A stretch of DNA of 31,446 nt from a virus (lineage: Duplodnaviria > Heunggongvirae > Uroviricota > Caudoviricetes), in the IMG/VR virus record IMGVR_UViG_2872698443_000005. One strand, given 5' to 3'. Position numbers and translations under genes: made by a program. Numbering within the stretch: the stretch's first letter is position 1; each line of letters begins with the position of its first letter. Below, piece after piece: positions 1 through 30,183 of this stretch. Under the pieces are notes generated by a model. That model did no database searches. It was not told the origin of the DNA and saw only the letters and a list, made by a program, of their open reading frames with translations.

Positions 1-890
1 ATGAAAAGCATATTAATTGAAAAACCGAATCAACTGGCGATTGTCGAACGTGAAATACCCACCCCGTCAGCGGGTGAAGTACGAGTAAAAGTGAAACTTG
101 CCGGAATTTGTGGTTCAGATAGCCATATTTATCGTGGGCATAATCCTTTTGCGAAATATCCGCGCGTCATTGGTCATGAATTCTTTGGCGTCATTGATGC
201 AGTGGGTGAAGGCGTGGAAAGCGCCAGAGTCGGTGAACGTGTTGCTGTCGATCCGGTGGTCAGCTGTGGGCATTGCTATCCGTGCTCTATAGGTAAACCG
301 AACGTTTGTACGACACTGGCTGTATTAGGTGTGCACGCTGACGGTGGTTTCAGTGAATATGCCGTGGTTCCGGCAAAAAATGCGTGGAAAATTCCTGAAG
401 CAGTGGCCGATCAATATGCGGTAATGATCGAACCTTTTACCATTGCGGCTAACGTAACCGGACATGGTCAACCGACTGAAAATGATACCGTTCTGGTTTA
501 TGGTGCCGGTCCAATCGGCCTGACGATCGTTCAGGTATTAAAAGGCGTCTATAACGTTAAAAATGTGATTGTTGCCGATCGCATTGATGAACGACTGGAA
601 AAAGCGAAAGAGAGCGGGGCTGACTGGGCGATTAATAACAGCCAGACACCGCTTGGCGAGATTTTCACTGAAAAAGGCATCAAGCCGACATTAATTATCG
701 ATGCGGCTTGTCATCCTTCTATCCTGAAAGAGGCCGTAACGCTGGCTTCTCCAGCGGCACGTATTGTATTGATGGGGTTCTCCAGTGAACCGTCTGAAGT
801 GATTCAGCAAGGAATTACCGGAAAAGAACTCTCTATTTTCTCTTCACGCTTAAATGCAAATAAATTCCCGATCGTTATCGACTGGTTAAG
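1..890 (+). pseudogene. rspB: Zn-dependent alcohol dehydrogenase family gene (RspB-like), 3' end cut off by IS1 after codon ~296
   Basis: ORF from position 1 with the GHE..FGV and CGxC Zn-ADH motifs and a GAGPIG Rossmann motif. The reading frame runs straight into the IS1 terminal repeat at 891, so the last residues of the 303-aa ORF are IS1-encoded. Symbol is from recollection of E. coli RspB (about 339 aa). Confidence 0.7.
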
Positions 891-945
891 GGTAATGCTG
901 CCAACTTACTGATTTAGTGTATGATGGTGATTTTAAGGTGCTTGC

Positions 946-1221
946 GTGGCTTCCATTTCCATCAGATGTCCTTCCTGCTCCGCTACTGAAGGCGTGGTGC
1001 GTAACGGCAAAAGCACTGCCGGACATCAGCGCTATCTCTGCTCTCACTGCCGTAAAACATGGCAACTGCAGTTCACTTACACCGCTTCTCAACCCGGTAC
1101 GCACCAGAAAATCATTGATATGGCCATGAATGGCGTTGGATGCCGGGCAACTGCCCGCATTATGGGCGTTGGCCTCAACACGGTTTTACGTCACTTAAAA
1201 AACTCAGGCCGCAGTCGGTAA
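946..1221 (+). CDS. insA: IS1 InsA (transposition inhibitor / N-terminal part of the InsAB' transposase)
   Basis: 91-aa [26 protein letters not shown]... with a Zn-finger and HTH; the A6C slippery motif ttaaaaaactc sits at about 1194-1204. Confidence 0.92.
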
Positions 1222-1643
1222 CCTCGCGCATACAACCGGGCAGTGATGTGATTGTCTGCGCGGAAATGGACGAACAGTGGGGCTATGTCGGGGCTAAATC
1301 GCGCCAGCGCTGGCTGTTTTACGCGTATGACAGGCTCCGGAAGACGGTTGTTGCGCACGTATTCGGTGAACGCACGATGGCGACGCTGGGGCGTCTTATG
1401 AGCCTGCTGTCACCCTTTGACGTGGTGATATGGATGACGGATGGCTGGCCGCTGTATGAATCCCGCCTGAAGGGAAAGCTGCACGTAATCAGCAAGCGAT
1501 ATACGCAGCGAATTGAGCGGCATAACCTGAATCTGAGGCAGCACCTGGCACGGCTGGGACGGAAGTCGCTGTCGTTCTCAAAATCGGTGGAGCTGCATGA
1601 CAAAGTCATCGGGCATTATCTGAACATAAAACACTATCAATAA
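1140..1643 (+). CDS. insB: IS1 InsB (transposase catalytic part, made as InsAB' by a -1 frameshift)
   Basis: 167-aa ORF in the -1 frame relative to insA, overlapping the insA 3' end. Confidence 0.9.
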
Positions 1644-1770
1644 GTTGGAGTCATTACCATGGCCAGCATATTTGGCAAAATCTTAATCAGGAAAAGTATG
1701 CTAACTGATCTTACCCAGCAATAGTGGACACGCAGCTAAGTGAGTAAACTCTCAGTCAGAGGTGACTCAC

Positions 1771-2070
1771 ATGACAAAAACAGTATCAACCAGTAAAAAA
1801 CCCCGTAAACAGCATTCGCCTGAATTTCGCAGTGAAGCCCTGAAGCTTGCTGAACGCATCGGTGTTACTGCCGCAGCCCGTGAACTCAGCCTGTATGAAT
1901 CACAGCTCTACAACTGGCGCAGTAAACAGCAAAATCAGCAGACGTCTTCTGAACGTGAACTGGAGATGTCTACCGAGATTGCACGTCTCAAACGCCAGCT
2001 GGCAGAACGGGATGAAGAGCTGGCTATCCTCCAAAAGGCCGCGACATACTTCGCGAAGCGCCTGAAATGA
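1771..2070 (+). CDS. insE: IS3 OrfA (InsE), HTH DNA-binding transposase subunit
   Basis: 99-aa [35 protein letters not shown]... with a leucine-zipper-like C-terminus; overlaps orfB in an ATGA arrangement. Confidence 0.9.
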
Positions 2071-2933
2071 AGTATGTCTTTATTGAAAAACATCAGGCTG
2101 AGTTCAGCATCAAAGCAATGTGCCGCGTGCTCCGGGTGGCCCGCAGCGGCTGGTATACGTGGTGTCAGCGGCGGACAAGGATAAGCACGCGTCAGCAGTT
2201 CCGCCAACACTGCGACAGCGTTGTCCTCGCGGCTTTTACCCGGTCAAAACAGCGTTACGGTGCCCCACGCCTGACGGATGAACTGCGTGCTCAGGGTTAC
2301 CCCTTTAACGTAAAAACCGTGGCGGCAAGCCTGCGCCGTCAGGGACTGAGGGCAAAGGCCTCCCGGAAGTTCAGCCCGGTCAGCTACCGCGCACACGGCC
2401 TGCCTGTGTCAGAAAATCTGTTGGAGCAGGATTTTTACGCCAGTGGCCCGAACCAGAAGTGGGCAGGAGACATCACGTACTTACGTACAGATGAAGGCTG
2501 GCTGTATCTGGCAGTGGTCATTGACCTGTGGTCACGTGCCGTTATTGGCTGGTCAATGTCGCCACGCATGACGGCGCAACTGGCCTGCGATGCCCTGCAG
2601 ATGGCGCTGTGGCGGCGTAAGAGGCCCCGGAACGTTATCGTTCACACGGATCGTGGAGGCCAGTACTGTTCAGCAGATTATCAGGCGCAACTGAAGCGGC
2701 ATAATCTGCGTGGAAGTATGAGCGCAAAAGGTTGCTGCTACGATAATGCCTGCGTGGAAAGCTTCTTTCATTCGCTGAAAGTGGAATGTATCCATGGAGA
2801 ACACTTTATCAGCCGGGAAATAATGCGGGCAACGGTGTTTAATTATATCGAATGTGATTACAATCGGTGGCGGCGGCACAGTTGGTGTGGCGGCCTCAGT
2901 CCGGAACAATTTGAAAACCAGAACCTCGCTTAG
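2067..2933 (+). CDS. insF: IS3 OrfB (InsF), DDE transposase catalytic domain
   Basis: 288-aa ORF in the -1 frame relative to orfA; DDE/rve-type integrase core (..HTDRGGQY.., ..[11 protein letters not shown]..). Confidence 0.9.
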
Positions 2934-3773: not shown

Positions 3774-4081
3774 ATGACTCAAGACTATGAACTGGTTGTG
3801 AAAGGAGTCCGTAATTTTGAGAATAAAGTTACGGTAACTGTAGCCTTACAGGACAAAGAACGCTTTGACGGTGAAATTTTTGGCCTGGATGTCGCCATGG
3901 ACCGTGTTGAAGGAGCTGCGCTGGAGTTTTATGAGGCAGCAGCCAGAAGGAGCGTCCGGCAAGTCTTCCTGGAAGTAGCAGAAAAATTGTCAGAAAAAGT
4001 TGAGTCTTATCTGCAGCATCAGTACTCCTTTAAGATTGAAAATCCTGCCAATAAGCACGAACGTCCTCATCATAAATATAT

Positions 4082-4085
<4 letters not shown>
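3774..4085 (+). CDS. ydfR: Uncharacterised 103-aa protein between holin and endolysin (YdfR-like)
   Basis: ORF with a good RBS (gagaggagag) 5 nt after the holin stop; its stop overlaps the endolysin start (ATGA). No recognisable catalytic motif. Confidence 0.55.
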
Positions 4086-5109
<1,024 letters not shown>

Positions 5110-5370: not shown

Positions 5371-5472
5371 TATTATTTGTACCTCTTGAGATTTCCTTGT
5401 TGGTTTTTCTCTCTGATATTTTTTTTTCGGACCATTCTGCCCAAGGGCTAATTTCTTCAAAAGGTAATAATT

Positions 5473-8154: not shown

Positions 8155-8649
8155 ATGGATCGAGAGTTAAAAAATCTGACGCTGAATATCAGTCAACTGG
8201 CGGCATTGTCAGGTGTACATCGCCAGACTGCTGCGGCAAGGCTGCAAAATCTACCCGTTGCAGGGGGGCATGAAAGCAACCTCAAGCTTTATCGGGTGGT
8301 TGATATTGTGTCGGCATTTCTGGCATTACCACCGCCGGTTGCAGAAGGCGAAATGGACGCGCATGAGCGCAAAGCCTGGTATCAGTCTGAACGTGAGCGT
8401 CTTAAGTTCGAACAGGAAACGGCACAACTCATTCCGGCCAGTGATGTCAGACGGGAGTTTGCCATCTGGGCAAAAGCGGTCGTGCAGGTGCTGGAGACAT
8501 TACCGGATATTCTTGAACGTGACTGCGGTCTGCAGCCTGCCGCTGTGAGCCGTGTTCAGTCCATTATTGATGATCTGCGCGATCAGATAGCCCTGCGGGT
8601 GACTGAAGCAGGTGCGGATGATGAGGAGGAATTACAGCAGGAGGAGTAA
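8155..8649 (+). CDS. Terminase small subunit (Nu1-like)
   Basis: 164-aa ORF with an N-terminal helix-turn-helix (LTLNISQLAALSGVHRQTAAARL) and an acidic C-terminus; stop overlaps the large-subunit start (TAATG); downstream of cos. Confidence 0.8.
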   Translation: MDRELKNLTLNISQLAALSGVHRQTAAARLQNLPVAGGHESNLKLYRVVDIVSAFLALPPPVAEGEMDAHERKAWYQSERERLKFEQETAQLIPASDVRREFAIWAKAVVQVLETLPDILERDCGLQPAAVSRVQSIIDDLRDQIALRVTEAGADDEEELQQEE

Positions 8650-10712
8650 TGCTGAATCAGGAAACCGCAAAGGCAGCACGAACCGATTCAGGTTATATCC
8701 TTCGCGCACCGAGACGAATGCGGGTTGCTGATGCCGTTGCTCAGTATATGCGGGTGCCCATGGGGGCAGGGAACTCAGTCCCGTGGGATCCGCTGGTGGC
8801 ACCGTATGTTATTGAGCCTATGAACTGCCTGGCCTCGCGTGAATACGACGCAGTGATATTTGTTGGCCCGGCACGAACCGGCAAGACTATCGGCCTGATT
8901 GACGGCTGGGTGATTTACAACGTGATTTGCGATCCTGCTGATATGCTGATCATTCAGATGACGGAGGAAAAAGCCCGCGAACACTCCAAAAAACGACTCG
9001 CCAGAACGTTTCGCGTCAGCCCGGAAGTGGTCAGTCGCCTGAGTCCGAACAAAAATGACAACAACGTTTATGACAGAACATTCCTTGCTGGCAACTACCT
9101 GAAAATCGGCTGGCCGTCAGTCAATATCATGTCTTCATCAGATTATAAATGCGTGGCGCTGACGGATTATGACCGTTTTCCGGAAGATATTGATGGTGAG
9201 GGGGATGCCTTCTCTCTTGCCTCAAAACGTACCACCACATTTATGTCCAGTGGTATGACGCTGGTGGAGAGTTCCCCCGGCAGGGATGTGAAGGATGTGA
9301 AATGGCGACGGACTTCACCGCATGAGGCTCCACCAACCACGGGGATCCTGTCGCTCTATAACCGTGGCGATCGCCGTCGCTGGTACTGGCCCTGTCCACA
9401 CTGTGGTGAGTATTTTCAGCCCTGCGGCGATGTGGTTGCTGGTTTCCGTGATATTGCCGATCCTGTGCTGGCAAGTGAGGCGGCTTATATTCAGTGTCCT
9501 TCCTGTTCAGGACGGATTTTGCCTGAACAAAAACGCGAGCTGAACGGACGTGGGGTCTGGTTACGGGATGGTGAATCCATCAATGCAGATGGCAGTCGTT
9601 ATGGTGATCCCCGGCGTTCACGTATTGCGTCATTCTGGATGGAGGGGCCGGCAGCTGCTTATCAGACACTCTCGCAACTCGTTTACAAACTGCTTACTGC
9701 AGAACAGGAATACGAGACAACCGGAAGTGAAGAGACACTCAAGACGGTTATCAATACCGACTGGGGATTACCTTATCTTCCCCGCGCCAGCATGGAGCAA
9801 CGAAAAAGTGAATTGCTTGAGCAGCGGGCAGAGCCAGTTCCTTCCCGCAGTGTGCCGGATGGCGTTAATTTCCTTGTGGCGATAGTGGATGTGCAGGCGG
9901 GACGTCATCGCCGTTTTGTGGTTCAGGTAACGGGCTATGGCAGCCGTGGCGAACGCTGGATTATTGATCGTTACAACATCACGCAGTCATTGCGCGGTGA
10001 CAGCGACGGGGAGAGCCAGCGAATTGATCCGGCCAGCTATCCGGAAGACTGGGATGTCCTGCTGACGGATGTTTTTCATAAAAGCTGGCCGCTGGCCTCC
10101 GATCCTTCTCAACAAATGCGACTGATGGCAATGGCGGTGGACTCCGGCGGTGAAGACGGGGTCACTGATAATGCCTATAAATTCTGGCGTCGTTGCCGTC
10201 GTGATGGCCTTGGTAAACGTATTTACCTGTTTAAGGGCGACAGCATCCGGCGCGCAAAACTGATCACCCGTACATTCCCTGATAACACCGGACGAACGGG
10301 CCGACGGGCGCAGGCCGCAGGTGATGTACCGCTCTGGCTTCTTCAGACGGATGCCCTGAAAGACCGGGTGAATAACGCGTTATGGCGTGACTCGCCAGGT
10401 CCCGGCTATGTGCATTTCCCTGACTGGCTGGGGAGCTGGTTTTACGACGAACTGACGTATGAAGAGCGGAGCAGTGACGGGAAATGGAGTAAGCCGGGTC
10501 GCGGTGCCAACGAAGCTTTTGACCTGATGGTGTATGCCGAGGCTCTGGTCATTCTGCATGGATACGAAAAGATCCGCTGGCCGGATGCACCGGAGTGGGC
10601 GAGTCGGGAAACCTGGCTGGAGTGTGTCCCGGACAGTACCGAACCGTCACCCACACCGGAACCGGTATCCACGCCTGTTAAAAAAACAAAAACGGAAGAA
10701 AACAGTAACTGA
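8649..10712 (+). CDS. Terminase large subunit (lambda gpA family)
   Basis: 687-aa ORF with a Walker A motif (GPARTGKT) and a CPHCGE Zn-ribbon-like motif recalled from lambda gpA. Confidence 0.9.
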   Translation: MLNQETAKAARTDSGYILRAPRRMRVADAVAQYMRVPMGAGNSVPWDPLVAPYVIEPMNCLASREYDAVIFVGPARTGKTIGLIDGWVIYNVICDPADMLIIQMTEEKAREHSKKRLARTFRVSPEVVSRLSPNKNDNNVYDRTFLAGNYLKIGWPSVNIMSSSDYKCVALTDYDRFPEDIDGEGDAFSLASKRTTTFMSSGMTLVESSPGRDVKDVKWRRTSPHEAPPTTGILSLYNRGDRRRWYWPCPHCGEYFQPCGDVVAGFRDIADPVLASEAAYIQCPSCSGRILPEQKRELNGRGVWLRDGESINADGSRYGDPRRSRIASFWMEGPAAAYQTLSQLVYKLLTAEQEYETTGSEETLKTVINTDWGLPYLPRASMEQRKSELLEQRAEPVPSRSVPDGVNFLVAIVDVQAGRHRRFVVQVTGYGSRGERWIIDRYNITQSLRGDSDGESQRIDPASYPEDWDVLLTDVFHKSWPLASDPSQQMRLMAMAVDSGGEDGVTDNAYKFWRRCRRDGLGKRIYLFKGDSIRRAKLITRTFPDNTGRTGRRAQAAGDVPLWLLQTDALKDRVNNALWRDSPGPGYVHFPDWLGSWFYDELTYEERSSDGKWSKPGRGANEAFDLMVYAEALVILHGYEKIRWPDAPEWASRETWLECVPDSTEPSPTPEPVSTPVKKTKTEENSN

Positions 10713-10748
10713 CGATGTTAACCCCTGGCTGACTTCCGGAGGATGGTT

Positions 10749-10961
10749 ATGAATCAGAATGATATTGAAGCCATGATTCAGCGTTATACGGAAGCTGAAA
10801 TGGCGGTGCTGGACGGAAAATCCGTCACTTTTAATGGTCAGCAGATGACCATGGAAAACTTATCTGAGATCCGGCAGGGGCGGCAGGAGTGGGAGCGCCG
10901 CCTTGCGGCTCTGATTACACGACGACGGGGGCATCCCGGGTACCGGCTGGCGAGGTTCTGA
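10749..10961 (+). CDS. Head-tail joining protein (gpW-like)
   Basis: 70-aa ORF located between terminase and portal as in lambda; RBS ggagga 5 nt upstream; stop overlaps the portal ATG (ATGA). Confidence 0.65.
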   Translation: MNQNDIEAMIQRYTEAEMAVLDGKSVTFNGQQMTMENLSEIRQGRQEWERRLAALITRRRGHPGYRLARF

Positions 10962-16921: not shown

Positions 16922-17308
16922 ATGTTTCTGAAACAGGACACGTTTAATTATGAAAAACAGTCCGTGGTGCTCAGTGAGCTGTCCGGGCTGCAGAGAATTG
17001 AATATCTGACGTTTGTTCAGCAGCGAACGGCAAAGTTTGATGCCGGGGAGGGAGAACTGCCGGAGGCTGAACGACAGATTGCTTTTCTGCGGATGGGGAT
17101 GGATATCAATGCCTGGCTGGTTTCCCGCTCACTGTGGAATGCGGATCAGTCTAAGGATGTAGAGACGCTTTGCGCATCCGTTATTACAACATGGTCGTAT
17201 GATGCCCTGGGTGCGGGGGCGGAGATGGTTCTGTCGCTGAGCGGTATGGGGGCCATTGATAATGCCGTGGATGATGAGCATGAGGCGCTGACGCCGGAAA
17301 AGTCCTGA
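16922..17308 (+). CDS. G: Tail assembly chaperone G (lambda gpG homologue)
   Basis: MFLKQDTFNYEKQSVVLSELSGLQRIEYL...AEMVLSLSGMGAIDNA... resembles recalled lambda G; RBS ggtggaga. Confidence 0.85.
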   Translation: MFLKQDTFNYEKQSVVLSELSGLQRIEYLTFVQQRTAKFDAGEGELPEAERQIAFLRMGMDINAWLVSRSLWNADQSKDVETLCASVITTWSYDALGAGAEMVLSLSGMGAIDNAVDDEHEALTPEKS

Positions 17309-17646
17309 CGCGGGAAATGCAGTTTGTCATGCGGCTTGCCCGGGAGTTCCGGCGGGCAGACTGGCGGCGGATGCTGTCGGAAATGTCGGCCACTGAGCTT
17401 GGTGAGTGGGGCGATTATTTCCGGATGCAGAGCTTCAGTGATGTGTGGATGGATGCGCAGTTTGCCTCGCTGAAGGCATTGATCGTGAGAATGGTGTCCG
17501 GCAGCAGTGATGCTGCGGTGGCTGATTTCAGCCTTTTACCGGAAGAGAACGGGATACCGGAGCGAACGGACGAAGAACTGATGCATCTTGGGGAAGGTAT
17601 TTCCGGAGGTGTGCGTTATGGACCAGATAGCCAACCTGGTCATTGA
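17284..17646 (+). CDS. T: T reading frame, predicted to be expressed only as a G-T fusion by a -1 ribosomal frameshift near the 3' end of G
   Basis: The -1 frame opens at 17284 and the G stop is at 17306-17308, so the slip must occur within about 22 nt. That window contains GGAAAAG (17296-17302), at the position of lambda's GGGAAAG slip site. Confidence 0.7.
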   Translation, partial: GADAGKVLTREMQFVMRLAREFRRADWRRMLSEMSATELGEWGDYFRMQSFSDVWMDAQFASLKALIVRMVSGSSDAAVADFSLLPEENGIPERTDEELMHLGEGISGGVRYGPDSQPGH

Positions 17647-20600
17647 TTTGGGGATTGATGCGGCAGAGTTTAAAAATGAAATTCCCCGTATCAAAAACCT
17701 TCTGAATGGTGCAGCCAGCGATGCAGAACGGTCTTCTGCCCGTATGCAGCGTTTTATGGAGCGTCAGACTCAGGCCGCCCGGCAGACAACGCAGGCAGCT
17801 TCTTCGGCTGCAACAGCCGCATCCGTCCATGCGCAGACGGTGGAGAAGAACGCACAGGCTCATGAACGCATGGCCCGCGAGGTGGAGAAAACCCGCCAGC
17901 GCATGGAGGCACTGAGCCAGAAAATGCGCGAGGAACAGGCGCAGGCCATGGCTCTGGCGGAGGCTCAGGATAAAGCGGCTGCTGCGTTTTATCGTCAGAT
18001 TGACAGTGTGAAACAGGCCAGTGCGGGGCTGCAGGAATTACAGCGTATTCAGCAGCAGATCCGACAGGCCAGAAACAGTGGCGGGATTGGTCAGCAGGAT
18101 TATCTGGCGCTGATTTCTGAGGTTACGGCGAAAACCCGTGTTCTTACGCAGGCTGAGGAAGAGGCTACCCGACAGAAAGTGGCGTTTATCCGTCAGCTTA
18201 AAGAGCAGGCAACCCGCCAGAATCTTTCTTCTTCTGAGTTGCTTCGTGCTAAGGCTGCCCAGCTGGGGGTAAGCAGTGCTGCAGAAGTGTATATCCGCAA
18301 AATGGAGCAGGCAGGAAAAGCCACGCATTCGCTGGGTCTGAAAAGTGCAGCGGCCCGCCAGGAGATAGGCGTTCTGATAGGTGAACTGGCCCGCGGCAAT
18401 TTAGGGGCGCTGAGGGGATCCGGGATAACGCTGGCTAACCGTGCCGGATGGATAGACACTCTGATGTCACCGAAAGGCATGATGCTTGGCGGGGTTATTG
18501 GCGGTATTGCCGCGTCCGTCTATGGTCTGGGTAAAGCCTGGTATGACGGTCAGAAGGAGGGGGAAGAATTTAACCGCCAGTTGTCGCTGACGGGGCATTA
18601 TGCCGGAGTCACTGCCGGGCAGCTGTGGACGCTCAGTCGTGCTATTTCCGGGAATGGTATCACGCAACATGCTGCAGCCGGTGTGCTGGCTCAGGTGGTG
18701 GGGAGTGGTGCATTTCGTGGAAACGATATCGGTATGGTGGCGAGAGCTGCCGCACAGATGGAGCGATCGGTTGGCCAGTCGGTCAGCGATACCATAAATC
18801 AGTTTAAGCGGCTGAAGGATGATCCTGTAAATGCCGCGAAGGCTCTGGACAATGAGCTGCATTTTCTTACTGCCACTCAGCTTGAGCAGATACGTGTCCT
18901 TGGGGATCAGGGACGGTCCAGTGATGCTGCACGGATAGCCATGTCTGCACTGGCAGAGGAAACCGATCGGCGTACTGCGGATATTGATAATAACCTCAAT
19001 GCGCTTGGCAGTACGCTGAAGTATCTGTCTGATTTGTGGAGTCGTTTCTGGGATGCGGCCATGAATATTGGTCGTGAAGACTCGCTGGATGAACAGATTG
19101 CCGCTTTACAGGAGAAAGTGTCGCGGGCGAAAAGACTCCCCTGGACGGCATCATCTTCTCAGGTTGAATACGATCAGCAGCGTCTTAACGATCTTCAGGA
19201 GAAAAAACGCCAGAAGGATTTGCAGGATGCAAAAGAGCAGGCAGAGCGGAATTATCAGGAGCAACAGAAACGACGTAATGCTGAAAATGCTGCACTGAAC
19301 CGGATGAATGAAACGGAAGCAGCACGACATCAGCGTGAAATTGCGCGTATTAATTCCATGCAGTACGCCGATCAGGCTGTCAGGGATGCAGCGATACAAC
19401 GTGAAAATGAACGTTACGAGAAAGCCCTGGCATCCGGTAAGAAAAAAACACGCGAAACCCGTAATGATGAGGCCACCCGGTTATTGCTGCAGTACAGTCA
19501 GCAACAGGCACAGGTGGAAGGACAGATTGCTGTTGCAAGACAGTCAGCAGGCATTGCCACTGAAAAGATGACAGAAGCGCATAAACAGCTTCTGGCTCTG
19601 CAGCAGCGCATCAGCGATCTGGACGGGAAAAAACTGACGGCAGATGAAAAGAGTGTGCTGGCCCGTAAAGATGAACTGATTCAGGCACTGACGCTGCTGG
19701 ATGTAAAACAGCAGGAGCTTCAGAAACAGACGGCACTCAACGATCTGAAGAAAAAAACAATTCAGCTGACCAGTCAACTGGCTGAAGAAGAGCTCGCTCA
19801 GCGTCAGCAACATGACCTGGATATCGCCACGGTGGGTATGGGTGATCAGCAGCGGCAGCGATATCAGGTACAACTGAGTCTTCGCCAGAAATACCAGCAA
19901 CAGCTGGAGCAGTTGAGGCGGGATAGTGAGCAGAAAGGGACATATAACACGGATGACTACAGAAAGGCCGAGCAGGCGCTGACGGAGAGCCTGAACCGAC
20001 AACTGAATGAGAATCGCCGTTACTGGCAACAGCTTGAAGTTGTGCAGGGTAACTGGAAAAACGGAGTCCTGCGTGCATTTCAGGATTTTACCGTGGATGC
20101 AGACAATACGGCAGGAACAGCAGAACAGGTGTTCTCGTCAGCCTTCAGCAACATGGGAAATGGCCTGGCAACTTTTGTCACTACCGGCAAACTCAACTTC
20201 AAATCCTTCACCTCTTCGGTGCTGTCAGATATGGCGAAAATCCTGGCGCAGGCAACCATGATGAAATCGATAAAAGGGATTGGCAGTGTACTGGGATTTG
20301 ATCTCAGCAGCCTTTCCCTGAATGCCAATGGGGGGATTTATCAGTCTGCTGATTTGAGTCGTTACAGTGGCACGGTGGTTAACCGTCCGACGTTTTTTGC
20401 TTTTGCAAAAGGCGCGGGTGTGATGGGGGAAGCGGGACCTGAAGCCATTCTGCCATTGCGTCGTGGTGCTGACGGTAAGCTGGGGGTTGTGGCGGATATT
20501 GGGGGTTCAGGTATGGCGATGTTTTCCCCGCAGTACAACATCGAGATCAATAACGATGGCACGAACGGGCAGATAGGTCCGGCTGCCCTGAAGGCGGTTT

Positions 20601-20683
20601 ATGACCTCGGGAAAAAAGCGGCAGCGGACTTTATGCAACAGCAGGCCCGTGATGGTGGTCGGTTAAGTGGAGCATATCGGTAA
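17618..20683 (+). CDS. H: Tail tape measure protein H (lambda gpH homologue), 1021 aa
   Basis: Long coiled-coil-rich ORF; C-terminal ..INNDGTNGQIGPAALKAVYD..RDGG matches the recalled lambda H C-terminus; RBS ggagg. Confidence 0.9.
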   Translation: MDQIANLVIDLGIDAAEFKNEIPRIKNLLNGAASDAERSSARMQRFMERQTQAARQTTQAASSAATAASVHAQTVEKNAQAHERMAREVEKTRQRMEALSQKMREEQAQAMALAEAQDKAAAAFYRQIDSVKQASAGLQELQRIQQQIRQARNSGGIGQQDYLALISEVTAKTRVLTQAEEEATRQKVAFIRQLKEQATRQNLSSSELLRAKAAQLGVSSAAEVYIRKMEQAGKATHSLGLKSAAARQEIGVLIGELARGNLGALRGSGITLANRAGWIDTLMSPKGMMLGGVIGGIAASVYGLGKAWYDGQKEGEEFNRQLSLTGHYAGVTAGQLWTLSRAISGNGITQHAAAGVLAQVVGSGAFRGNDIGMVARAAAQMERSVGQSVSDTINQFKRLKDDPVNAAKALDNELHFLTATQLEQIRVLGDQGRSSDAARIAMSALAEETDRRTADIDNNLNALGSTLKYLSDLWSRFWDAAMNIGREDSLDEQIAALQEKVSRAKRLPWTASSSQVEYDQQRLNDLQEKKRQKDLQDAKEQAERNYQEQQKRRNAENAALNRMNETEAARHQREIARINSMQYADQAVRDAAIQRENERYEKALASGKKKTRETRNDEATRLLLQYSQQQAQVEGQIAVARQSAGIATEKMTEAHKQLLALQQRISDLDGKKLTADEKSVLARKDELIQALTLLDVKQQELQKQTALNDLKKKTIQLTSQLAEEELAQRQQHDLDIATVGMGDQQRQRYQVQLSLRQKYQQQLEQLRRDSEQKGTYNTDDYRKAEQALTESLNRQLNENRRYWQQLEVVQGNWKNGVLRAFQDFTVDADNTAGTAEQVFSSAFSNMGNGLATFVTTGKLNFKSFTSSVLSDMAKILAQATMMKSIKGIGSVLGFDLSSLSLNANGGIYQSADLSRYSGTVVNRPTFFAFAKGAGVMGEAGPEAILPLRRGADGKLGVVADIGGSGMAMFSPQYNIEINNDGTNGQIGPAALKAVYDLGKKAAADFMQQQARDGGRLSGAYR

Positions 20684-21012
20684 TGGAGACGTTTCACTGG
20701 AAAGTGCGCCCGGATATGAATGTGGTATCAGAGCCGAAAGTGGTGACAGTGAAGCTGGGCGATGGTTATGAACAGCGTCGTGCGGCGGGACTGAATAACC
20801 AGTTGTCGACTTACAGCGTGACGATACGTGTTCGTAAATGTGAACACCCATCTTTAAAAGCCTTTCTGGAACGGCACGGTGGCGTCCGTGCATTTCAGTG
20901 GACGCCACCTTATGACTGGAAACCGATCAGGGTGGTTTGTCGTAAATGGTCGGCAAGCGTGGGGGCGCTGTGGGTAACCATAACGGCAGATTTTGAACAG
21001 GTCGTGGCATAG
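20683..21012 (+). CDS. M: Minor tail protein M (lambda gpM homologue)
   Basis: 109 aa; start overlaps the H stop (TAATG). Confidence 0.9.
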   Translation: METFHWKVRPDMNVVSEPKVVTVKLGDGYEQRRAAGLNNQLSTYSVTIRVRKCEHPSLKAFLERHGGVRAFQWTPPYDWKPIRVVCRKWSASVGALWVTITADFEQVVA

Positions 21013-21021
21013 GAGGCTCTG

Positions 21022-21720
21022 ATGCAGGATATTCCACAGGAAACACATCATGAGACGACACGCCTCACTCAGTCAGCCCAGGTGGTGCTATGGGAAATCG
21101 ATCTGACAGAGGTCGGTGGTGAACGTTATTTTTTCTGTAATGAGCAGAACGAAAAAGGTGAGCCGGTTATCTGGCAGGGGCGGCAGTATCAGGTATACCC
21201 CATTCAGGGGACGGGATTTGAACTGAACGGCAAGGGCAGTGCTGCCCGTCCGACACTGACGGTTTCTAACCTGCACGGCATGGTCACCGGGATGGCGGAA
21301 GACCTGCAGAGTCTGGTCGGAGGAACGGTGGTCCGGCGTAAGGTTTACGCCCGTTTTCTGGATGCGGTGAACTTCGTCAACGGAAACAGTGACGCCGATC
21401 CGGAGCAGGAGGTGATCAGCCGCTGGCGCATCGAGCAGTGCAGCGAACTGAGCGCGGTGAGTGCCTCTTTTGTACTGTCCACGCCGACGGAAACGGACGG
21501 TGCTGTTTTTCCGGGACGTATCATGCTGGCCAACACCTGCACCTGGACCTATCGCGGTGATGAGTGCGGTTATCACGGTCCGGCAGTCGCGGATGAATAT
21601 GACCAGCCAACGTCCGATATCACGAAGGATAAATGCAGCAAATGCCTGAGCGGTTGTAAGTTCCGCAATAACGTCGGCAACTTTGGCGGCTTCCTTTCCA
21701 TTAACAAACTTTCGCAGTAA
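21022..21720 (+). CDS. L: Minor tail protein L (lambda gpL homologue)
   Basis: 232 aa; RBS aggagg; conserved C-terminal Cys cluster (..CSKCLSGCKF..). Confidence 0.9.
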   Translation: MQDIPQETHHETTRLTQSAQVVLWEIDLTEVGGERYFFCNEQNEKGEPVIWQGRQYQVYPIQGTGFELNGKGSAARPTLTVSNLHGMVTGMAEDLQSLVGGTVVRRKVYARFLDAVNFVNGNSDADPEQEVISRWRIEQCSELSAVSASFVLSTPTETDGAVFPGRIMLANTCTWTYRGDECGYHGPAVADEYDQPTSDITKDKCSKCLSGCKFRNNVGNFGGFLSINKLSQ

Positions 21721-21725
21721 ATCCC

Positions 21726-22468
21726 ATGACACAGACAGAATCAGCGATTCTGGCGCACGCCCGGCGATGTGCGCCAGCGGAGTCGTGCGGCTTCGTGGTG
21801 AGAGCGCCGGAGGGGAAAGATATTTTCCCGGCGTGAATATTTCCGGTGAGCCGGAGGATTATTTCCGGATGGCTCCGGAGGACTGGCTGCAGGCAGAAAT
21901 GCAGGGTGAGATTGTGGCGCTGGTCCACAGCCACCCCGGTGGTCTGCCCTGGCTGAGTGAGGCTGACCGGCGGCTGCAGGTGCAGAGTGATTTGCCGTGG
22001 TGGCTGGTCTGCCGGGGGGCGATTCATAAGTTCCGCTGTGTGCCGCATCTCACCGGGCGGCGCTTTGAGCACGGGGTGACGGACTGTTACACGCTGTTCC
22101 GGGATGCTTATCATCTGGCGGGGATTGAGATGCCGGATTTTCATCGCGAGGATGACTGGTGGCGTCACGGTCAGAATCTCTATCTGGATAATCTGGAGGC
22201 CACAGGGCTGTATCAGGTGCCGTTGTCAGCGGCGCAGCCGGGCGATGTGCTGCTGTGCTGTTTTGGTTCATCGGTGCCGAATCATGCCGCCATTTACTGT
22301 GGTGACGGTGAGCTGCTGCACCATATTCCTGAACAACTGAGTAAACGAGAGAGGTACACCGACAAATGGCAGCGACGCACACACTCCCTCTGGCGTCACC
22401 GGGAATGGCACGCATCTGCCTTTACGGGGATTTACAACGATTTGGCCGCCGCATCGACCTTCGTGTGA
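21726..22468 (+). pseudogene. K: Tail protein K (lambda gpK homologue; JAB/MPN and NlpC/P60-like motifs), reading frame broken near 21812-21815
   Basis: The ATG at 21726 encodes MTQTESAILAHARRCAPAESCGFVV... and stops at 21834-21836 after 36 codons. The rest (..GERYFPGVNISGEPE...HSHPGG...DCYTLF...) continues in the -1 frame to 22468. The switch lies at a GGGG run (21812-21815) and is consistent with one missing G. Confidence 0.85.
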
Positions 22469-23013
22469 AAACGGGGGCTGAAGCCATCCGCGCACTGGCC
22501 ACACAGCTCCCGGCGTTTCGTCAGAAACTGAGCGACGGCTGGTATCAGGTACGGATTGCCGGGCGTGATGCAGGTGAAACCGAATTGTCTGCCCGTCTTA
22601 ATGAGCCGCTGGCAAATGGTGCCGTGATCCACATCGTGCCGCGTCTGGCGGGAGCTAAAAGTGGCGGTGTGTTTCAGGTGGTGCTGGGGGCGGCGCTGAT
22701 TGCGGTGGCATGGTGGAACCCTGTGGGCTGGCTGGGTGCCGCGGCTGTATCGGGCATGTATGCGGCAGGGGCCAGTATGATCCTAGGCGGAGTGGCGCAG
22801 ATGCTGGCACCGAAAGCCAGGACGCCCACGGCAGCAAGTACAGATAACGGCAAACAGAACACCTATTTCTCCTCACTGGATAACATGGTTGCCCAGGGCA
22901 ATGTTCTGCCTGTTCTGTACGGGGAAATGCGCGTGGGGTCACGCGTGGTTTCTCAGGAGATCAGCACGGCAGACGAAGGGGACGGTGGTCAGGTTGTGGT
23001 GATTGGTCGCTGA
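22366..23013 (+). CDS. I: Tail assembly protein I (lambda gpI homologue)
   Basis: 215 aa; N-terminus MAATHTLPLASPGMARICLYGDLQRFGRRIDLRVKTGAEAIRALATQLPAF as recalled for lambda I; overlaps the K 3' end. Confidence 0.9.
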   Translation: MAATHTLPLASPGMARICLYGDLQRFGRRIDLRVKTGAEAIRALATQLPAFRQKLSDGWYQVRIAGRDAGETELSARLNEPLANGAVIHIVPRLAGAKSGGVFQVVLGAALIAVAWWNPVGWLGAAAVSGMYAAGASMILGGVAQMLAPKARTPTAASTDNGKQNTYFSSLDNMVAQGNVLPVLYGEMRVGSRVVSQEISTADEGDGGQVVVIGR

Positions 23014-23073
23014 TGCAAAATGTTTTATGTGAAACCGCCTGCGGGCGGTTTTGTCATTTATGGAGCGTGAGGA

Positions 23074-26000
23074 ATGGGTAAAGGAAGCAGTAAGGGGCAT
23101 ACCCCGCGCGAAGCGAAGGACAACCTGAAGTCCACGCAGTTGCTGAGTGTGATCGATGCCATCAGCGAAGGGCCGGTTGAAGGTCCGGTGGATGGATTAA
23201 AAAGCGTGCTGCTGAACAGTACGCCGGTGCTGGACAGTGAGGGGAATACCAACATCTCCGGCGTCACGGTGGTGTTCCGGGCAGGTGAGCAGGAGCAGAC
23301 ACCGCCGGAAGGTTTTGAATCCTCCGGCTCCGAGACTGTGCTGGGTACGGAAGTGAAATATGACACGCCGATCACCCGCACCATCACGTCGGCAAACATC
23401 GACCGTCTGCGCTTTACCTTCGGTGTGCAGGCACTGGTGGAAACCACCTCAAAGGGTGACCGGAATCCGTCGGAAGTCCGCCTGCTGGTTCAGATACAAC
23501 GTAACGGTGGCTGGGTGACGGAAAAAGATATCACCATTAAGGGCAAAACCACCTCGCAGTATCTGGCCTCGGTGGTGGTGGATAACCTGCCGCCGCGCCC
23601 GTTTAATATCCGGATGCGCAGAATGACGCCGGACAGCACCACAGACCAGCTGCAGAACAAAACGCTCTGGTCGTCATACACCGAAATCATCGATGTGAAA
23701 CAGTGCTACCCGAACACGGCACTGGTCGGCGTGCAGGTGGATTCGGAGCAGTTCGGCAGCCAGCAGGTGAGCCGTAATTATCATCTTCGCGGGCGCATTC
23801 TGCAGGTGCCGTCGAATTATAACCCGCAGACGCGGCAATACAGCGGTATCTGGGACGGAACGTTAAAACCGGCATACAGCAACAACATGGCCTGGTGTCT
23901 GTGGGATATGCTGACCCACCCGCGCTACGGCATGGGGAAACGTCTTGGTGCGGCAGATGTGGATAAATGGGCGCTGTATGTCATCGGCCAGAATTGCGAC
24001 CAGTCGGTGCCGGACGGCTTTGGCGGTACGGAGCCGCGCATCACCTGTAACGCTTACCTGACCACACAACGTAAGGCGTGGGATGTGCTCAGTGATTTCT
24101 GCTCGGCGATGCGCTGTATGCCGGTATGGAACGGGCAGACGCTGACGTTCGTGCAGGACCGACCGTCGGATAAGGTGTGGACCTATAACCGCAGTAATGT
24201 GGTGATGCCGGATGATGGCGCGCCGTTCCGCTACAGCTTCAGCGCCCTGAAAGACCGCCATAATGCCGTTGAGGTGAACTGGATTGACCCGGATAACGGC
24301 TGGGAGACGGCAACAGAGCTTGTGGAGGACTCGCAGGCCATTGCCCGTTACGGTCGTAATGTCACGAAGATGGATGCCTTTGGCTGTACCAGCCGGGGCA
24401 GGCACACCGCGCCGGGCTGTGGCTGATTAAAACGGAGCTGCTGGAAACGCAGACGGTGGACTTCAGCGTGGGTGCCGAAGGGCTTCGCCATGTGCCGGGC
24501 GATGTCATTGAAATCTGTGATGATGACTATGCCGGTATCAGCACCGGCGGGCGCGTGCTGGCGGTAAACAGCCAGACCCGGACGCTGACGCTCGACCGTG
24601 AAATCACGCTGCCATCCTCCGGTACCACGCTGATAAGCCTGGTTGACGGAAGTGGCAATCCGGTCAGCGTGGAGGTTCAGTCCGTCACCGACGGCGTGAA
24701 GGTAAAAGTGAGCCGTGTTCCTGACGGCGTTGCCGGATACAGCGTGTGGGGGCTGAAGTTGCCGACGTTGCGCCAGCGCCTGTTCCGCTGTGTGAGTATC
24801 CGTGAGAACAATGACGGCACGTATGCCATCACCGCCGTGCAGCATGTACCGGAAAAAGAAGCCATCGTGGATAACGGGGCGCACTTTGACGGCGACCAGA
24901 GCGGCACGGTGAATGGTGTCACGCCGCCAGCGGTGCAGCACCTGACCGCCGAAGTCACCGCAGACAGTGGGGAGTATCAGGTACTGGCCCGCTGGGACAC
25001 GCCGAAGGTGGTGAAGGGCGTGAGCTTCCTGCTCCGTCTGACCGTAACAGCGGATGACGGCAGTGAGCGGCTGGTCAGCACGGCCCGGACGACGGAAACC
25101 ACATACCGCTTCAGGCAGCTGGCGCTGGGGCGTTACATGCTGACGGTCCGGGCGGTAAATGCGTGGGGACAGCAGGGCGATCCGGCGTCGGTATCGTTCC
25201 GGATTGCCGCACCGGAAGCACCGTCGAGGATTGAGCTGACGCCGGGCTATTTTCAGATAACCGCCACGCCGCATCTTGCCGTTTATGACCCGACGGTACA
25301 GTTTGAGTTCTGGTTCTCGGAAAAGCGGATTACCGATATCAGGCAGGTTGAAACCACAGCCCGCTATCTTGGTACGGCGCTGTACTGGATAGCCGCCAGT
25401 ATCAATATCAAACCGGGCCATGATTATTACTTTTATATCCGCAGTGTGAACACCGTTGGCAAATCGGCATTCGTGGAGACCGTCGGTCGGGCGAGCGATA
25501 ATGCGGAAGGTTACCTGGATTTTTTCAAAGGCAAGATAACCGAATCCCATCTCGGCAAGGAGCTGCTGGAAAAAGTCGAGCTGACGGAGGATAACGCCAG
25601 CAAACTGGAGGAGTTTTCGAAAGAGTGGCAGGACGCTAACGATAAGTGGAATGCCATGTGGGGCGTCAAAATTGAGCAGACCAAAGACGGCAAACATTAT
25701 GTCGCGGGTATTGGCCTCAGCATGGAGGACACGGAGGAAGGCAAACTGAGTCAGTTTCTGGTTGCCGCTAACCGTATCGCATTTATTGACCCGGCAAACG
25801 GGAATGAAACGCCGATGTTTGTGGCGCAGGGCAATCAGATATTCATGAACGACGTGTTCCTGAAGCGCCTGACGGCCCCCACCATTACCAGCGGTGGCAG
25901 TCCTCCGGTATTTTCCCTGACATCAGACGGAAAGCTGACCGCTAAAAATGCGGATATCAGTGGCAGTGTGAATGCGAACGCCGGGACGCTCAACAATGTC

Positions 26001-26486
26001 ACGGTAAATGAAAACTGTACGATTAAGGGCATGCTGGAGGCGACTCAGGTCAGAGGTGACTTCGTTAAAGCTGTATCCAAATCATTTCCGAAACAGGCTG
26101 GTACGTGGGGTAACACGGAAACACCAAACGGGACGGTTACAGTCACCATCAGCGATGATCATAACTTTGACCGTCAAATCATTATTCCGCCCATTATCTT
26201 TAACGGAATAGCGTATAGCGATCCGGGAAGTGGTAATAACCCGGGAGGTACAAGATACACGGGTTATGGTTTTGAAGTTCGCAAAAACGGTGTATTAATC
26301 GCATCCAGAGAAACTAAAGGGGCCATTCCCGGTAGCTACAGTGCGGTTATTGATATGCCGAGTGGCAGGGGAAGCGTCACTCTGGAGTTTAAGGTTTTCC
26401 ATAAAGGCAATCAGTGGGCAGGTAATATCACCGACTGTACGGTGATTGTGACCAAAAAAGCCGCTTCCGGCATCAGTATTCGTTGA
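23074..26486 (+). pseudogene. J: Central tail fibre / host-specificity protein J (lambda gpJ homologue), reading frame broken near 24395-24398
   Basis: Two consecutive ORFs (23074-24426 and 24456-26486) together cover a J-like protein of about 1130 aa. The first stops at 24424-24426; the -1 frame carries on with ..[25 protein letters not shown]... The switch is at a GGGG run (24395-24398), consistent with one missing G. Confidence 0.9.
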
Positions 26487-26506
26487 AATTGTTATAACCC
26501 ATATAA

Positions 26507-26532
26507 GGGCACCAGAAATGGTGCCTTTTTTA
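26507..26532 (+). terminator. Rho-independent terminator after J
   Basis: ggcacc-agaaat-ggtgcc hairpin followed by ttttttat. Confidence 0.6.
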
Positions 26533-26555
26533 TTGCAGAAAAGCGAGAGGTAATT

Positions 26556-27155
26556 ATGCGTAAACTTTATGCCGCCATTTTGTCCGCAGCCATTTGTCTG
26601 GCCGTATCCGGTGCGCCTGCATGGGCGTCTGAACATCAGTCCACGCTGAGCGCGGGGTATCTTCATGCCCGGACGAACGTTCCCGGCAGTGATGATCTGA
26701 ACGGGATTAACGTGAAATACCGTTATGAGTTTACGGACACACTGGGGCTGGTGACGTCATTCAGCTATGCAGGAGACAAGAATCGCCAGCTTACCCGTTA
26801 CAGCGATACCCGCTGGCATGAAGATTCCGTGCGTAACCGCTGGTTCAGCGTGATGGTGGGGCCGTCTGTGCGCGTGAATGAATGGTTCAGCGCGTATGCG
26901 ATGGCGGGTATGGCTTACAGCCGTGTGTCGACTTTCTCCGGGGATTATCTCCGCGTAACTGACAACAAGGGGAAAACGCACGACGTGCTGACCGGAAGTG
27001 ATGACGGTCGCCACAGCAACACGTCTCTGGCGTGGGGAGCTGGCGTGCAGTTTAACCCGACCGAATCCGTGGTCATTGATATTGCTTATGAAGGCTCCGG
27101 CAGTGGCGACTGGCGCACTGACGGTTTCATCGTGGGTGTCGGTTATAAGTTCTGA
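26556..27155 (+). CDS. lom: Lom, outer-membrane beta-barrel protein (Ail/Lom family)
   Basis: 199 aa; signal peptide [24 protein letters not shown]; ..[12 protein letters not shown]... and the C-terminal ..[25 protein letters not shown] match recalled lambda Lom. Confidence 0.9.
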
Positions 27156-27182
27156 TTAGCCAGGTAACACAGTGTTATGACA

Positions 27183-27208
27183 GCCCGCCGGTTCAGGCGG
27201 GCTTTTTT
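27183..27208 (+). terminator. Rho-independent terminator after lom
   Basis: gcccgcc-ggttca-ggcgggc hairpin followed by a run of six T. Confidence 0.65.
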
Positions 27209-27219
27209 GTGGGGTGAAT

Positions 27220-30183
27220 ATGGCAGTAAAGATTTCAGGTGTACTGAAAGACGGCACAGGAAAACCGGTACAGAACTGCACAATCCAGCTGAAAGCAAAA
27301 CGTAACAGCACCAGGGTGGTGGTGAACACGCTGGCCTCAGAAAATCCGGATGAAGCCGGGCGTTACAGCATGGACGTTGAGTACGGGCAGTACAGCGTTA
27401 TTCTGTTGGTGGAGGGATTCCCGCCGTCACATGCCGGGACCATCACCGTGTATGAAGATTCTCAACCCGGTACGCTGAATGATTTTCTCGGTGCCATGAC
27501 GGAGGATGATGCCCGTCCGGAGGCATTGCGACGTTTTGAACTGATGGTGGAAGAGGTGGCGCGTAACGCGTCCGCAGTGGCACAGAACACGGCAGCCGCG
27601 AAGAAGTCAGCCAGTGATGCCAGCACATCTGCCAGTGAGGCGGCAACCCATGCGACTGATGCTGCAGATTCAGCACGTGCAGCCAGCACGTCAGCCGGAC
27701 AGGCCGCGACGTCGGCTCAGGAGGCTTTTTCCAGCGCAGGAACGGCATCAGCAAAAGCCTCTGAGGCATCAAAAAGTGCTGCCGCTGCAGAGTCCTCAAA
27801 AAGCGCGGCGGCCACCAATGCCGGTGCGGCGAAAACGTCAGAAACGAATGCGGCAGCGTCACAACAATCAGCAGCCACTTCTGCATCCACCGCGACCACG
27901 AAAGCGTCAGAAGCAGCCACTTCAGCACGGGATGCGTCGGCTTCAAAAGAGGCGGCAAAATCATCAGAAACGAACGCAGCCTCGAGCGCCAGCAGCGCAG
28001 CTTCCTCGGCAACGGCGGCAGGAAATTCCGCGAAGGCGGCAAAAACGTCCGAGACGAACGCTAAGTCTTCTGAAACGGCAGCGGAACAGAGTGCCTCCGC
28101 AGCAGCAGACTCAAAAACAGCGGCTGCGTCGTCTGCCAGTGCAGCGTCAACAAGTGCGGGGCAGGCCTCAGCCAGTGCTAGCGCCGCCGGAAAATCGGCA
28201 GAAAGCGCTGCATCGTCCGCTTCAATAGCCACAACGAAGGCTGGCGAAGCCGCGGAACAGGCCAGCGCAGCAGCGAGGTCTGCATCCGCAGCGAAGACAT
28301 CCGAAACGAACGCGAAAGCGTCGGAAACCAGCGCAGAATCCTCAAAAACGGCTGCCGCATCGTCAGCCAGTTCGGCGGCGTCATCGGCATCATCGGCGTC
28401 TGCTTCAAAAGATGAGGCGACCAGACAGGCGTCAGCAGCGAAGGGCAGCGCCACGACGGCATCCACGAAGGCGACAGAGGCAGCTGGCAGTGCGACGGCG
28501 GCAGCTCAGAGCAAAAGTACGGCGGAGTCCGCGGCAACGCGCGCCGAGACAGCAGCAAAACGGGCAGAGGATATTGCATCCGCCGTGGCGCTTGAGGATG
28601 CGAGCACGACGAAAAAGGGGATAGTACAGCTCAGCAGTGCGACTAACAGCACTTCCGAGTCACTGGCGGCAACGCCAAAAGCCGTTAAGGCCGCGTATGA
28701 GCTGGCTAACGGGAAATACACCGCACAGGATGCAACGACAGCACAGAAAGGGATAGTTCAGCTCAGCAGCGCGACCAACAGCACATCTGAAATGCTGGCG
28801 GCAACGCCAAAGTCGGTAAAGGCAGCCTATGACCTTGCTAACGGGAAATATACTGCTCAGGACGCTACGACAGCACAAAAAGGAATTGTCCAGCTCAGTA
28901 GTGCAACCAACAGCGCATCTGAAACGCTTGCCGCGACACCGAAAGCAGTGAAAGCAGCTAATGATAATGCGAATGGTCGGGTACCTTCTGCCCGTAAGGT
29001 GAATGGTAAGGCGCTTTCAGCGGATATAACACTGACGCCGAAAGATATTGGTACGCTTAACTCAACAACAATGTCATTCAGCGGTGGTGCTGGTTGGTTC
29101 AAATTAGCAACGGTAACCATGCCACAGGCGAGTTCTGTTGTTTCAATTACGTTGATTGGTGGCGCGGGATTTAACGTGGGGTCACCTCAACAGGCAGGTA
29201 TATCTGAACTTGTTTTGCGTGCAGGTAATGGTAATCCGAAGGGGATTACTGGTGCTTTATGGCAGCGCACATCGACAGGGTTTACAAATTTTGCCTGGGT
29301 CAATACATCTGGTGATACTTACGATATTTACGTTGCAATCGGAAATTATGCGACTGGTGTAAATATTCAATGGGATTATACCAGTAATGCCAGCGTGACG
29401 ATTCATACGTCACCAGCATATTCTGCTAATAAGCCGGAAGGGTTAACGGACGGTACAGTTTATTCACTCTATACGCCATCAGAGCAGTTTTATCCGCCTG
29501 GCGCACCAATCCCGTGGCCATCAGATACCGTTCCGTCTGGCTATGCCCTGATGCAGGGGCAGACTTTTGACAAATCTGCATACCCGAAACTTGCAGCCGC
29601 TTATCCGTCAGGCGTGATCCCTGATATGCGTGGCTGGACGATTAAGGGCAAACCCGCCAGTGGTCGTGCCGTATTGTCTCAGGAACAGGACGGCATTAAA
29701 TCGCACACCCACAGCGCCAGCGCATCCAGTACGGATTTGGGGACGAAAAACACATCGTCGTTTGATTACGGAACCAAATCCACGAATAACACCGGGGCGC
29801 ATACCCATAGTATTAGCGGGACTGCAAATAGTGCCGGTGCGCACCAACACAAGAGTTCCGGTGCATTTGGTGGCACGAACACGAGCATTTTCCCTAATGG
29901 TTATACCGCGATTTCAAATCTAAGCGCGGGGATTATGAGCACAACAAGCGGTAGTGGCCAGACTCGTAATGCAGGGAAGACATCATCAGATGGTGCTCAT
30001 ACCCACTCGCTGTCCGGCACTGCTGCAAGCGCAGGCGCACATGCACATACTGTCGGTATTGGTGCTCATACGCACTCCGTTGCGATTGGTTCACATGGAC
30101 ACACCATCACCGTTAACGCTGCTGGTAACGCGGAAAACACCGTCAAAAACATCGCATTTAACTATATTGTGAGGCTTGCATAA
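27220..30183 (+). CDS. stf: Side tail fibre protein Stf
   Basis: 988 aa from ATG 27220 (track ORF starts 6 nt earlier at GTG). N-terminus [26 protein letters not shown]... and C-terminus ...[35 protein letters not shown] match recalled lambda Stf. Long Ala/Ser/Thr-rich low-complexity segment (about 27590-28570) and tandem repeats in the middle. Confidence 0.9.
28615..28965 (+). repeat. About 2.7 tandem copies of a 132-bp (44-codon) coding repeat inside stf
   Basis: Repeats encode [15 protein letters not shown](S/M)LAATPK(A/S)VKAAY(E/D)[15 protein letters not shown], starting at 28615, 28747 and 28879 (third copy diverges). Confidence 0.75.

Follow-up and report, generated by a model that had tools for sequence, protein, structure and literature searches.

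In the 31,446-nt stretch of DNA analysed here (the window), tail gene K is divided between two reading frames by the absence of one G from a run that has five in its near-identical relatives, and a gap of this kind also occurs further downstream, in the tail-fibre gene J. We consider, with a probability of roughly two in three, that both gaps are homopolymer undercalls in the assembly deposited as CP029687.1. The deposited sequence would then undercount the K homopolymer and the J homopolymer, recording G5 as G4 at each, and the organism itself would have K and J genes of intact length; the gaps would have been introduced during sequencing or consensus calling and would not exist in the cell. 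The weights that we attach to this and to three other readings are our own judgement, and none of them was computed.

The two parts of K and the genes on either side of it are arranged in the window as follows.

21022 to 21720, + strand: gene L, intact and directly upstream of K, in the synteny M-L-K-I-J
21726 to 21836, + strand: ORF of the K N-terminal fragment, with 30 native codons (21726-21815), six out-of-frame codons (KDIFPA) and TGA
21812 to 21815, + strand: G4 run (gaGGGGaaag), the site of the one-base contraction, placed by alignment A1 and by base-by-base differences against five near-identical prophages
21815 to 22468, + strand: remainder of K, codons 31-247 plus stop (217 codons), in the -1 frame, holding HSHP, SEAD and the NlpC/P60 Cys and His
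22465 to 23013, + strand: gene I, with a GTG start codon that overlaps the stop codon of K (GTGTGA)

The upstream ORF starts with the ATG at 21726, and its product is MTQTESAILAHARRCAPAESCGFVVRAPEG followed by KDIFPA and the stop. In the -1 frame the K part reads ERYFPGVNISGEPE...HSHPGG...DCYT...STFV and then a stop, across 21815-22468. When the K DNA of the window is aligned with that of lambda, phage 21, PhiR63_2 and ev207 (alignment A1, 98% mean column identity), the window has GAGGGGAAAG where the four phages have GAGGGGGAAAG, and this G run is the sole length difference within the gene. Five G's are also found at the site in five near-identical E. coli prophages. Adding one G to the run yields a 744-nt ORF of 247 aa that is 100% identical to the K protein of strain DETEC-P61 and shares 237 of its 247 residues with lambda K (96%), and likewise 237 of 247 with phage 21 K. 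Judged from these alignments, the K split is a homology-anchored one-base deletion and not a chance pattern of ORFs.

The repaired protein matches two Pfam domains, Prok-JAB (PF14464) at residues 3-98 (E = 2e-13) and NLPC_P60 (PF00877) at residues 111-224 (E = 5.7e-13). The JAB domain is cut at profile position 31, and the 36-aa piece retains profile positions 3-31 only. As a consequence of the frame switch, the JAMM Glu (AESCG, nt 21777), which lies on the N-terminal piece, is parted from HSHP (nt 21926), SEAD (nt 21956) and the NlpC/P60 Cys of DCYT (nt 22082), which lie on the other. The sequence-only reading had proposed that K is frameshifted at the G4 run 21812-21815, with a 36-codon N terminus and the rest of the gene in different frames, and that adding a G would bring back a single K-like ORF of about 247 aa. 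The alignment with lambda, phage 21, PhiR63_2 and ev207 DNA bears out the frameshift, the 36-codon ORF is as described, and the expected length is exactly right; the HSHP of JAB/MPN and the NlpC/P60 Cys that it had recognised agree with Pfam and with the motif positions.

Lambda gpK offers a direct comparison, since it resembles the repaired protein in its length of 247 aa, in combining Prok-JAB/MPN with NlpC/P60, and in the gene order M-L-K-I-J. It differs in that the ORF in the window is interrupted after codon 30 and lies in a non-inducible remnant rather than in a viable phage. As recorded, K has no single uninterrupted ORF of ~247 codons and is in that respect a pseudogene copy; in the other features of the gpK family, namely similarity, a JAB domain followed by NlpC/P60, and a position between L and I, it agrees with its relatives. 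The overlap of start and stop codons suggests that translation of gene I is probably coupled to that of K.

The gap in J has the same form as the gap in K, and its parts are listed below.

23074 to 24426, + strand: J N-terminal fragment, with 442 native residues, eight out-of-frame residues and a stop (450 codons)
24395 to 24398, + strand: second G4 run, a G5-to-G4 contraction inside J, identified by comparison with five relatives
24399 to 26486, + strand: remainder of J, residues 443-1137 (695 codons), in the -1 frame

Here too, one added G restores an intact protein, of 1137 aa and identical to the J of DETEC-P61. The J contraction is private to the CP029687.1 record: it is reproduced in none of the compared assemblies or products, and an exact-product look-up across ~15 billion proteins placed the 450-aa fragment on no other record. 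The break in J, and the prior defects of the prophage described below, were missed in the sequence-only reading, and they alter how the break in K is to be read.

Comparison with near-identical genomes carries most of the argument about origin. Against DETEC-P61 (CP116152.1), the window shows no substitutions and exactly two one-base gaps over 30,847 nt; both are G5-to-G4 contractions, one in K and one in J, 2.6 kb apart, and both are absent from all five relatives. The four further relatives differ from the window by 2 to ~40 substitutions, with every variant belonging to the relative, and in this set of five the window has no private change other than the K and J gaps. The other 28 G/C runs of at least five bases have the same length in DETEC-P61, as do the ~120 A/T runs, and the matching longer runs include two A8, one T9 and four G6. 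Genomes L146 and L150 match the window at every position (100%) of their overlaps. Seven assemblies were compared with the source over the 10 kb of chromosome that precede the window. Six of them show no indel relative to it; the lone gap, against L153, we attribute to L153 because it is absent from the other assemblies that cover the position. The intact K product is encoded exactly by 62 contigs, none of which has G4 in K, and the intact J product exactly by 71. Only about 65 assemblies have the sequence background of the window; this number, the very short branch to DETEC-P61 and the raised contraction frequency of the K run, described below, are the basis of our weights.

Two private indels beside zero private substitutions are the reverse of what a mutational spectrum would lead one to expect, and this favours an error in the assembly. 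Even in mismatch-repair-deficient E. coli, a CDS gathers ~0.85 indels for 6.02 base substitutions, and the rate of indels climbs exponentially with run length (PMC8510543). On that spectrum, real mutation should have left mostly substitutions, and the A8 and T9 runs would have been due to change before any G5 run. With indels making up ~12% of mutations even in repair-deficient cells, the probability that two changes out of two would both be indels is ~0.015, and it is lower still that both should fall in G5 runs while A8 and T9 are unchanged. Errors in long-read assemblies, by contrast, are chiefly false deletions in homopolymers, are commonest after runs of 4-5 bases, and pseudogenise genes (PMC12007338). 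The window resembles such cases in that a single-base deletion in a five-base run splits a conserved gene, with a second event nearby. It departs from the typical case in that only two sites are affected in ~41 kb of otherwise clean source sequence, with A8 and T9 runs correctly recorded, a pattern unlike that of typical nanopore error.

The RefSeq complete-genome collection does not contain the source record, and this absence is consistent with exclusion on grounds of quality. We found no mention of CP029687, GCA_003443795 or SRR23044203 in the literature. A particular form of assembly error, in repeats beyond the reach of short-read polishing, was considered and is unsupported, as close relatives have one copy of the 4-kb region.

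The principal competing account is that the gap in K is a real mutation, a recent replication slippage from G5 to G4 that would have made the gene a true pseudogene by neutral decay, with the gap in J either a second event or an assembly error. We think this possible but unlikely. The clean ~41 kb, with no other homopolymer discrepancy in the source, speaks for it, and so does the condition of the prophage in which K lies. The window corresponds to CP029687.1:2290747-2322192 of an E. coli chromosome and contains the remnant of a Qin-type lambdoid prophage, flanked by rspB' and pinQ/ydfK. The gene order begins with rspB' (truncated), IS1, IS3, ynfU, essD, ydfR, rrrQ, rzpQ, cspI, ynfN and gnsB; it continues with terminase, portal and a ClpP/capsid fusion, then the tail genes Z-U-V-G-T-H-M-L-K-I-J, and closes with lom, stf, tfaQ and pinQ. 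Three of its lesions precede the one in K.

946 to 2933, + strand: copies of IS1 and IS3, which take the place of the prophage early region
4502 to 4504, + strand: premature TGA in the lysozyme gene rrrQ (4082-4504), where PSS-08-2 has TGG
10680 to 10686, + strand: A7 run in the terminase large-subunit gene (8649-10752), which frameshifts the last part of the gene; PSS-08-2 has A6, in frame

The terminase A7 and the rrrQ TGA are both present in four independently assembled relatives, and because they are common to four independent assemblies we take them to be inherited and real; the lack of an early region is shared by four assemblies as well. With its early region gone, its terminase frameshifted and rrrQ stopped, the prophage was dead before the K lesion. 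Its tail genes are therefore free of selection, and a real frameshift in K would meet none, a point that counts against the preferred reading of an undercall and for slippage.

Several observations bear on the history of this element. Over window positions 1-2933, a Zn-dependent oxidoreductase gene (rspB-like) is truncated by IS1, which is followed by IS3, and the whole early and regulatory half has been replaced; a 303-aa product of the rspB-like/IS junction appears in 45 blocks of the protein collection, which indicates that the junction is common to a clone. The genome of PSS-08-2 (L012, AP027679.1) holds a fuller version of the prophage, in which the ydfT antiterminator and cspB/cspF are present and both terminase and lysozyme are intact; in this copy an IS1 has inserted within the group of head-tail joining genes, and part of J has diverged (window 25220-25439). 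An intergenic T9 run (window 5419-5427) is T10 in S163-2 and T8 in PSS-08-2, and is T9 in the window and three others. The window shares the neighbourhood of the Qin (Kim) cryptic prophage at the ydfJ locus, next to ydfJ', and it shares with Qin the markers essD, ydfR, rrrQ, rzpQ, cspI, ynfN, gnsB, tfaQ, pinQ, ydfK and ynfT. It differs in retaining the full head and tail gene set, from terminase through stf/tfa, and in having lost its early and regulatory half to IS1/IS3; the K-12 Qin is not known to carry those head and tail genes.

A real single-base frameshift in a phage tail gene would have a precedent in the stf gene of laboratory lambda, where such a lesion has persisted in a propagated lineage (PMC10721106). 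The parallel is incomplete: the stf frameshift is carried by a viable phage and shared by all its descendants, whereas the break in K is a near-singleton.

A further point in favour of slippage comes from a different read set. The Logan contig SRR23044203_643 has G4 in K and G5 in J, and apart from the J run it is identical to window positions 20527-27729 (7,204 nt). The K site thus recurs in an independent assembly with an identical 7.2-kb background, unlike the typical long-read error, which is private to one assembly. If SRR23044203 were an Illumina run of the same clone, G4 in K would be real and J alone would be the error. The same contig also counts on the other side, because the J contraction is reproduced nowhere and even this assembly, with its G4 in K, has G5 in J, which speaks for the undercall.

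One other complete genome, ET201 (L007, CP100994.1; K at 3933-4674), has G4 in K on the H-M-L-K background of the window, from which it differs by 1 SNP across 17794-22464. Its K gene has two G-run contractions, G5 to G4 and G6 to G5, together with one substitution, and the G6-to-G5 contraction is private and falls inside the same 744-nt gene. This double contraction bears the same signature as the window and looks like a base-calling error, which counts against slippage. The I and J genes of ET201 are mosaic, with ~109 mismatches from the window, alongside the nearly identical H-M-L-K segment.

The wider frequency of the contracted allele was assessed in 5426 complete E. coli genomes with 40-mers chosen so that each 28-base seed had to span the run. 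G5 runs in J, I and M were counted beside that in K.

K G5 run: 6 G4 and 850 G5 copies, G4 fraction 0.70%
J G5 run: 6 G4 and 6941 G5 copies, G4 fraction 0.09%
I G5 run (control, 22686): 1 G4 and 1071 G5 copies, G4 fraction 0.09%
M G5 run (control, 20961): 2 G4 and 1287 G5 copies, G4 fraction 0.16%

These counts indicate that all four runs have sporadic G5-to-G4 singletons. Contraction is 7.3 times as frequent in the K run as in the J, I and M runs pooled (Fisher p = 0.0009), as at a slippage hotspot; the excess could also mark a hotspot of base calling, and so it sits with either explanation even where it is turned against the undercall. The six K copies with G4 are scattered singletons on differing sequence backgrounds and form no clonal lineages, which argues against slippage. 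On the other side, all three of the G4 copies that we inspected in other genomes are annotated by the NCBI pipeline as 'frameshifted' pseudogenes. With a 21-base core pattern, IMG/VR yields G4 in 3 contigs and G5 in at least 120. The exact 40-mer of the K G4 allele has no match in IMG/VR, in GTDB representative genomes or in JGI metagenomes, and exact-product look-ups with the 36-aa K N-terminal fragment, a 233-aa K fragment (ATG at 21767) and a 676-aa J fragment returned no matches. Among the fragments looked up, the 199-aa K product that starts at Met49 alone gave hits, which led to the source record and to the Logan contig.

A more far-reaching idea would make the GAGGGGGAAAG run in early K a true slippage hotspot that acts as a contingency-like on/off site, to which we give little credence. 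A corollary that we hold equally improbable is that tail-tip assembly would be recurrently and reversibly switched off in lambdoid prophages, possibly with leaky K made by low-level -1 P-site slippage on G GGG.

The sequence-only reading had left the cause of the split open between an assembly error and programmed frameshifting. The first of these is now favoured, with real slippage decay as its rival, and the second is rejected. Programmed recoding would produce K from the two ORFs by -1 ribosomal frameshifting or by transcriptional slippage at the G run, in the manner of the lambda G-T tail chaperone, which is made by a -1 ribosomal frameshift. As in lambda G-T, the two tail ORFs lie in frames 0 and -1, and positions 21813-21819 spell GGGAAAG, the slippery sequence of lambda G-T; a P-site tRNA-Gly could also re-pair perfectly from GGG at 21813-15 to GGG at 21812-14. 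The K site is nevertheless without an in-phase slippery heptamer, a stimulatory structure or a conserved split. Its zero frame reads GAG GGG AAA GAT and holds no X XXY YYZ heptamer, the GGGAAAG string being in the wrong phase (frame +1). The fold of the 82 nt downstream (21819-21900), with an MFE of -25.4 kcal/mol, is no more stable than those of shuffled versions, whose mean is -23.9 (z = -0.52), and efficient transcriptional slippage needs a run much longer than four G's.

K is a single ORF with G5 in lambda, phage 21, PhiR63_2 and ev207, the split is absent from more than 99% of prophage copies, and the G5 copies outnumber those with G4 both in complete E. coli genomes and in IMG/VR, as given above. 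Because the arrangement is unconserved, we regard programmed frameshifting as effectively refuted; it is ruled out at K on phase, RNA structure and conservation together, and we give it next to no weight. The real candidate for recoding in the window is its own pair of G and T ORFs, at 16922-17308 and 17317-17646, which are intact and in the expected -1 relation, as in lambda. The G ORF ends in ACG CCG GAA AAG TCC TGA, without the lambda GGGAAAG heptamer.

No more credible is the proposal of a real allele whose truncated product still functions, by a restart at Met49 (21869) that would give a putative 199-aa peptidase with NlpC/P60 only. GenBank does record such a product as an 'endopeptidase' (AXT76399.1, 199 aa, 21869-22468), and it contains a complete NLPC_P60 domain by Pfam. 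It would lack the first 48 residues, however, including the JAMM Glu of the JAB domain, and the same call is made on G5-intact K genes in TUM9754 (BDO84822.1), L142 and L148. Since the call is also made on intact G5 K, it reflects the choice of start site by gene callers. The 199-aa call was accordingly rejected as a marker of broken K, L142, L148 and TUM9754 having G5 and yet the same annotation.

We return to the undercall, the reading that we prefer, and to what it and the slippage account would each imply. If the gaps are artefacts, K and J of the CP029687.1 record should not count as pseudogenes; two homopolymer undercalls make the tail module look over-decayed, and a spurious 199-aa 'endopeptidase' is called as a result. 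In lambda, gpK is required for tail assembly and is undetected in virions (PMC12617516, PMC10721106). Should the base really be absent, K would be a null allele, with translation stopping after 36 codons and the JAB domain broken, and gene I would lose its translational coupling to K. Even so, no phenotype would be expected, because the element cannot be induced, package DNA or lyse the cell, and the lesion would be one more neutral change in a prophage already without an early region, a working terminase or a lysozyme. No open question in phage biology is touched under either reading. The break in K is an ordinary one: most likely it is not biological, and if it is, it would represent the routine decay of a cryptic prophage.
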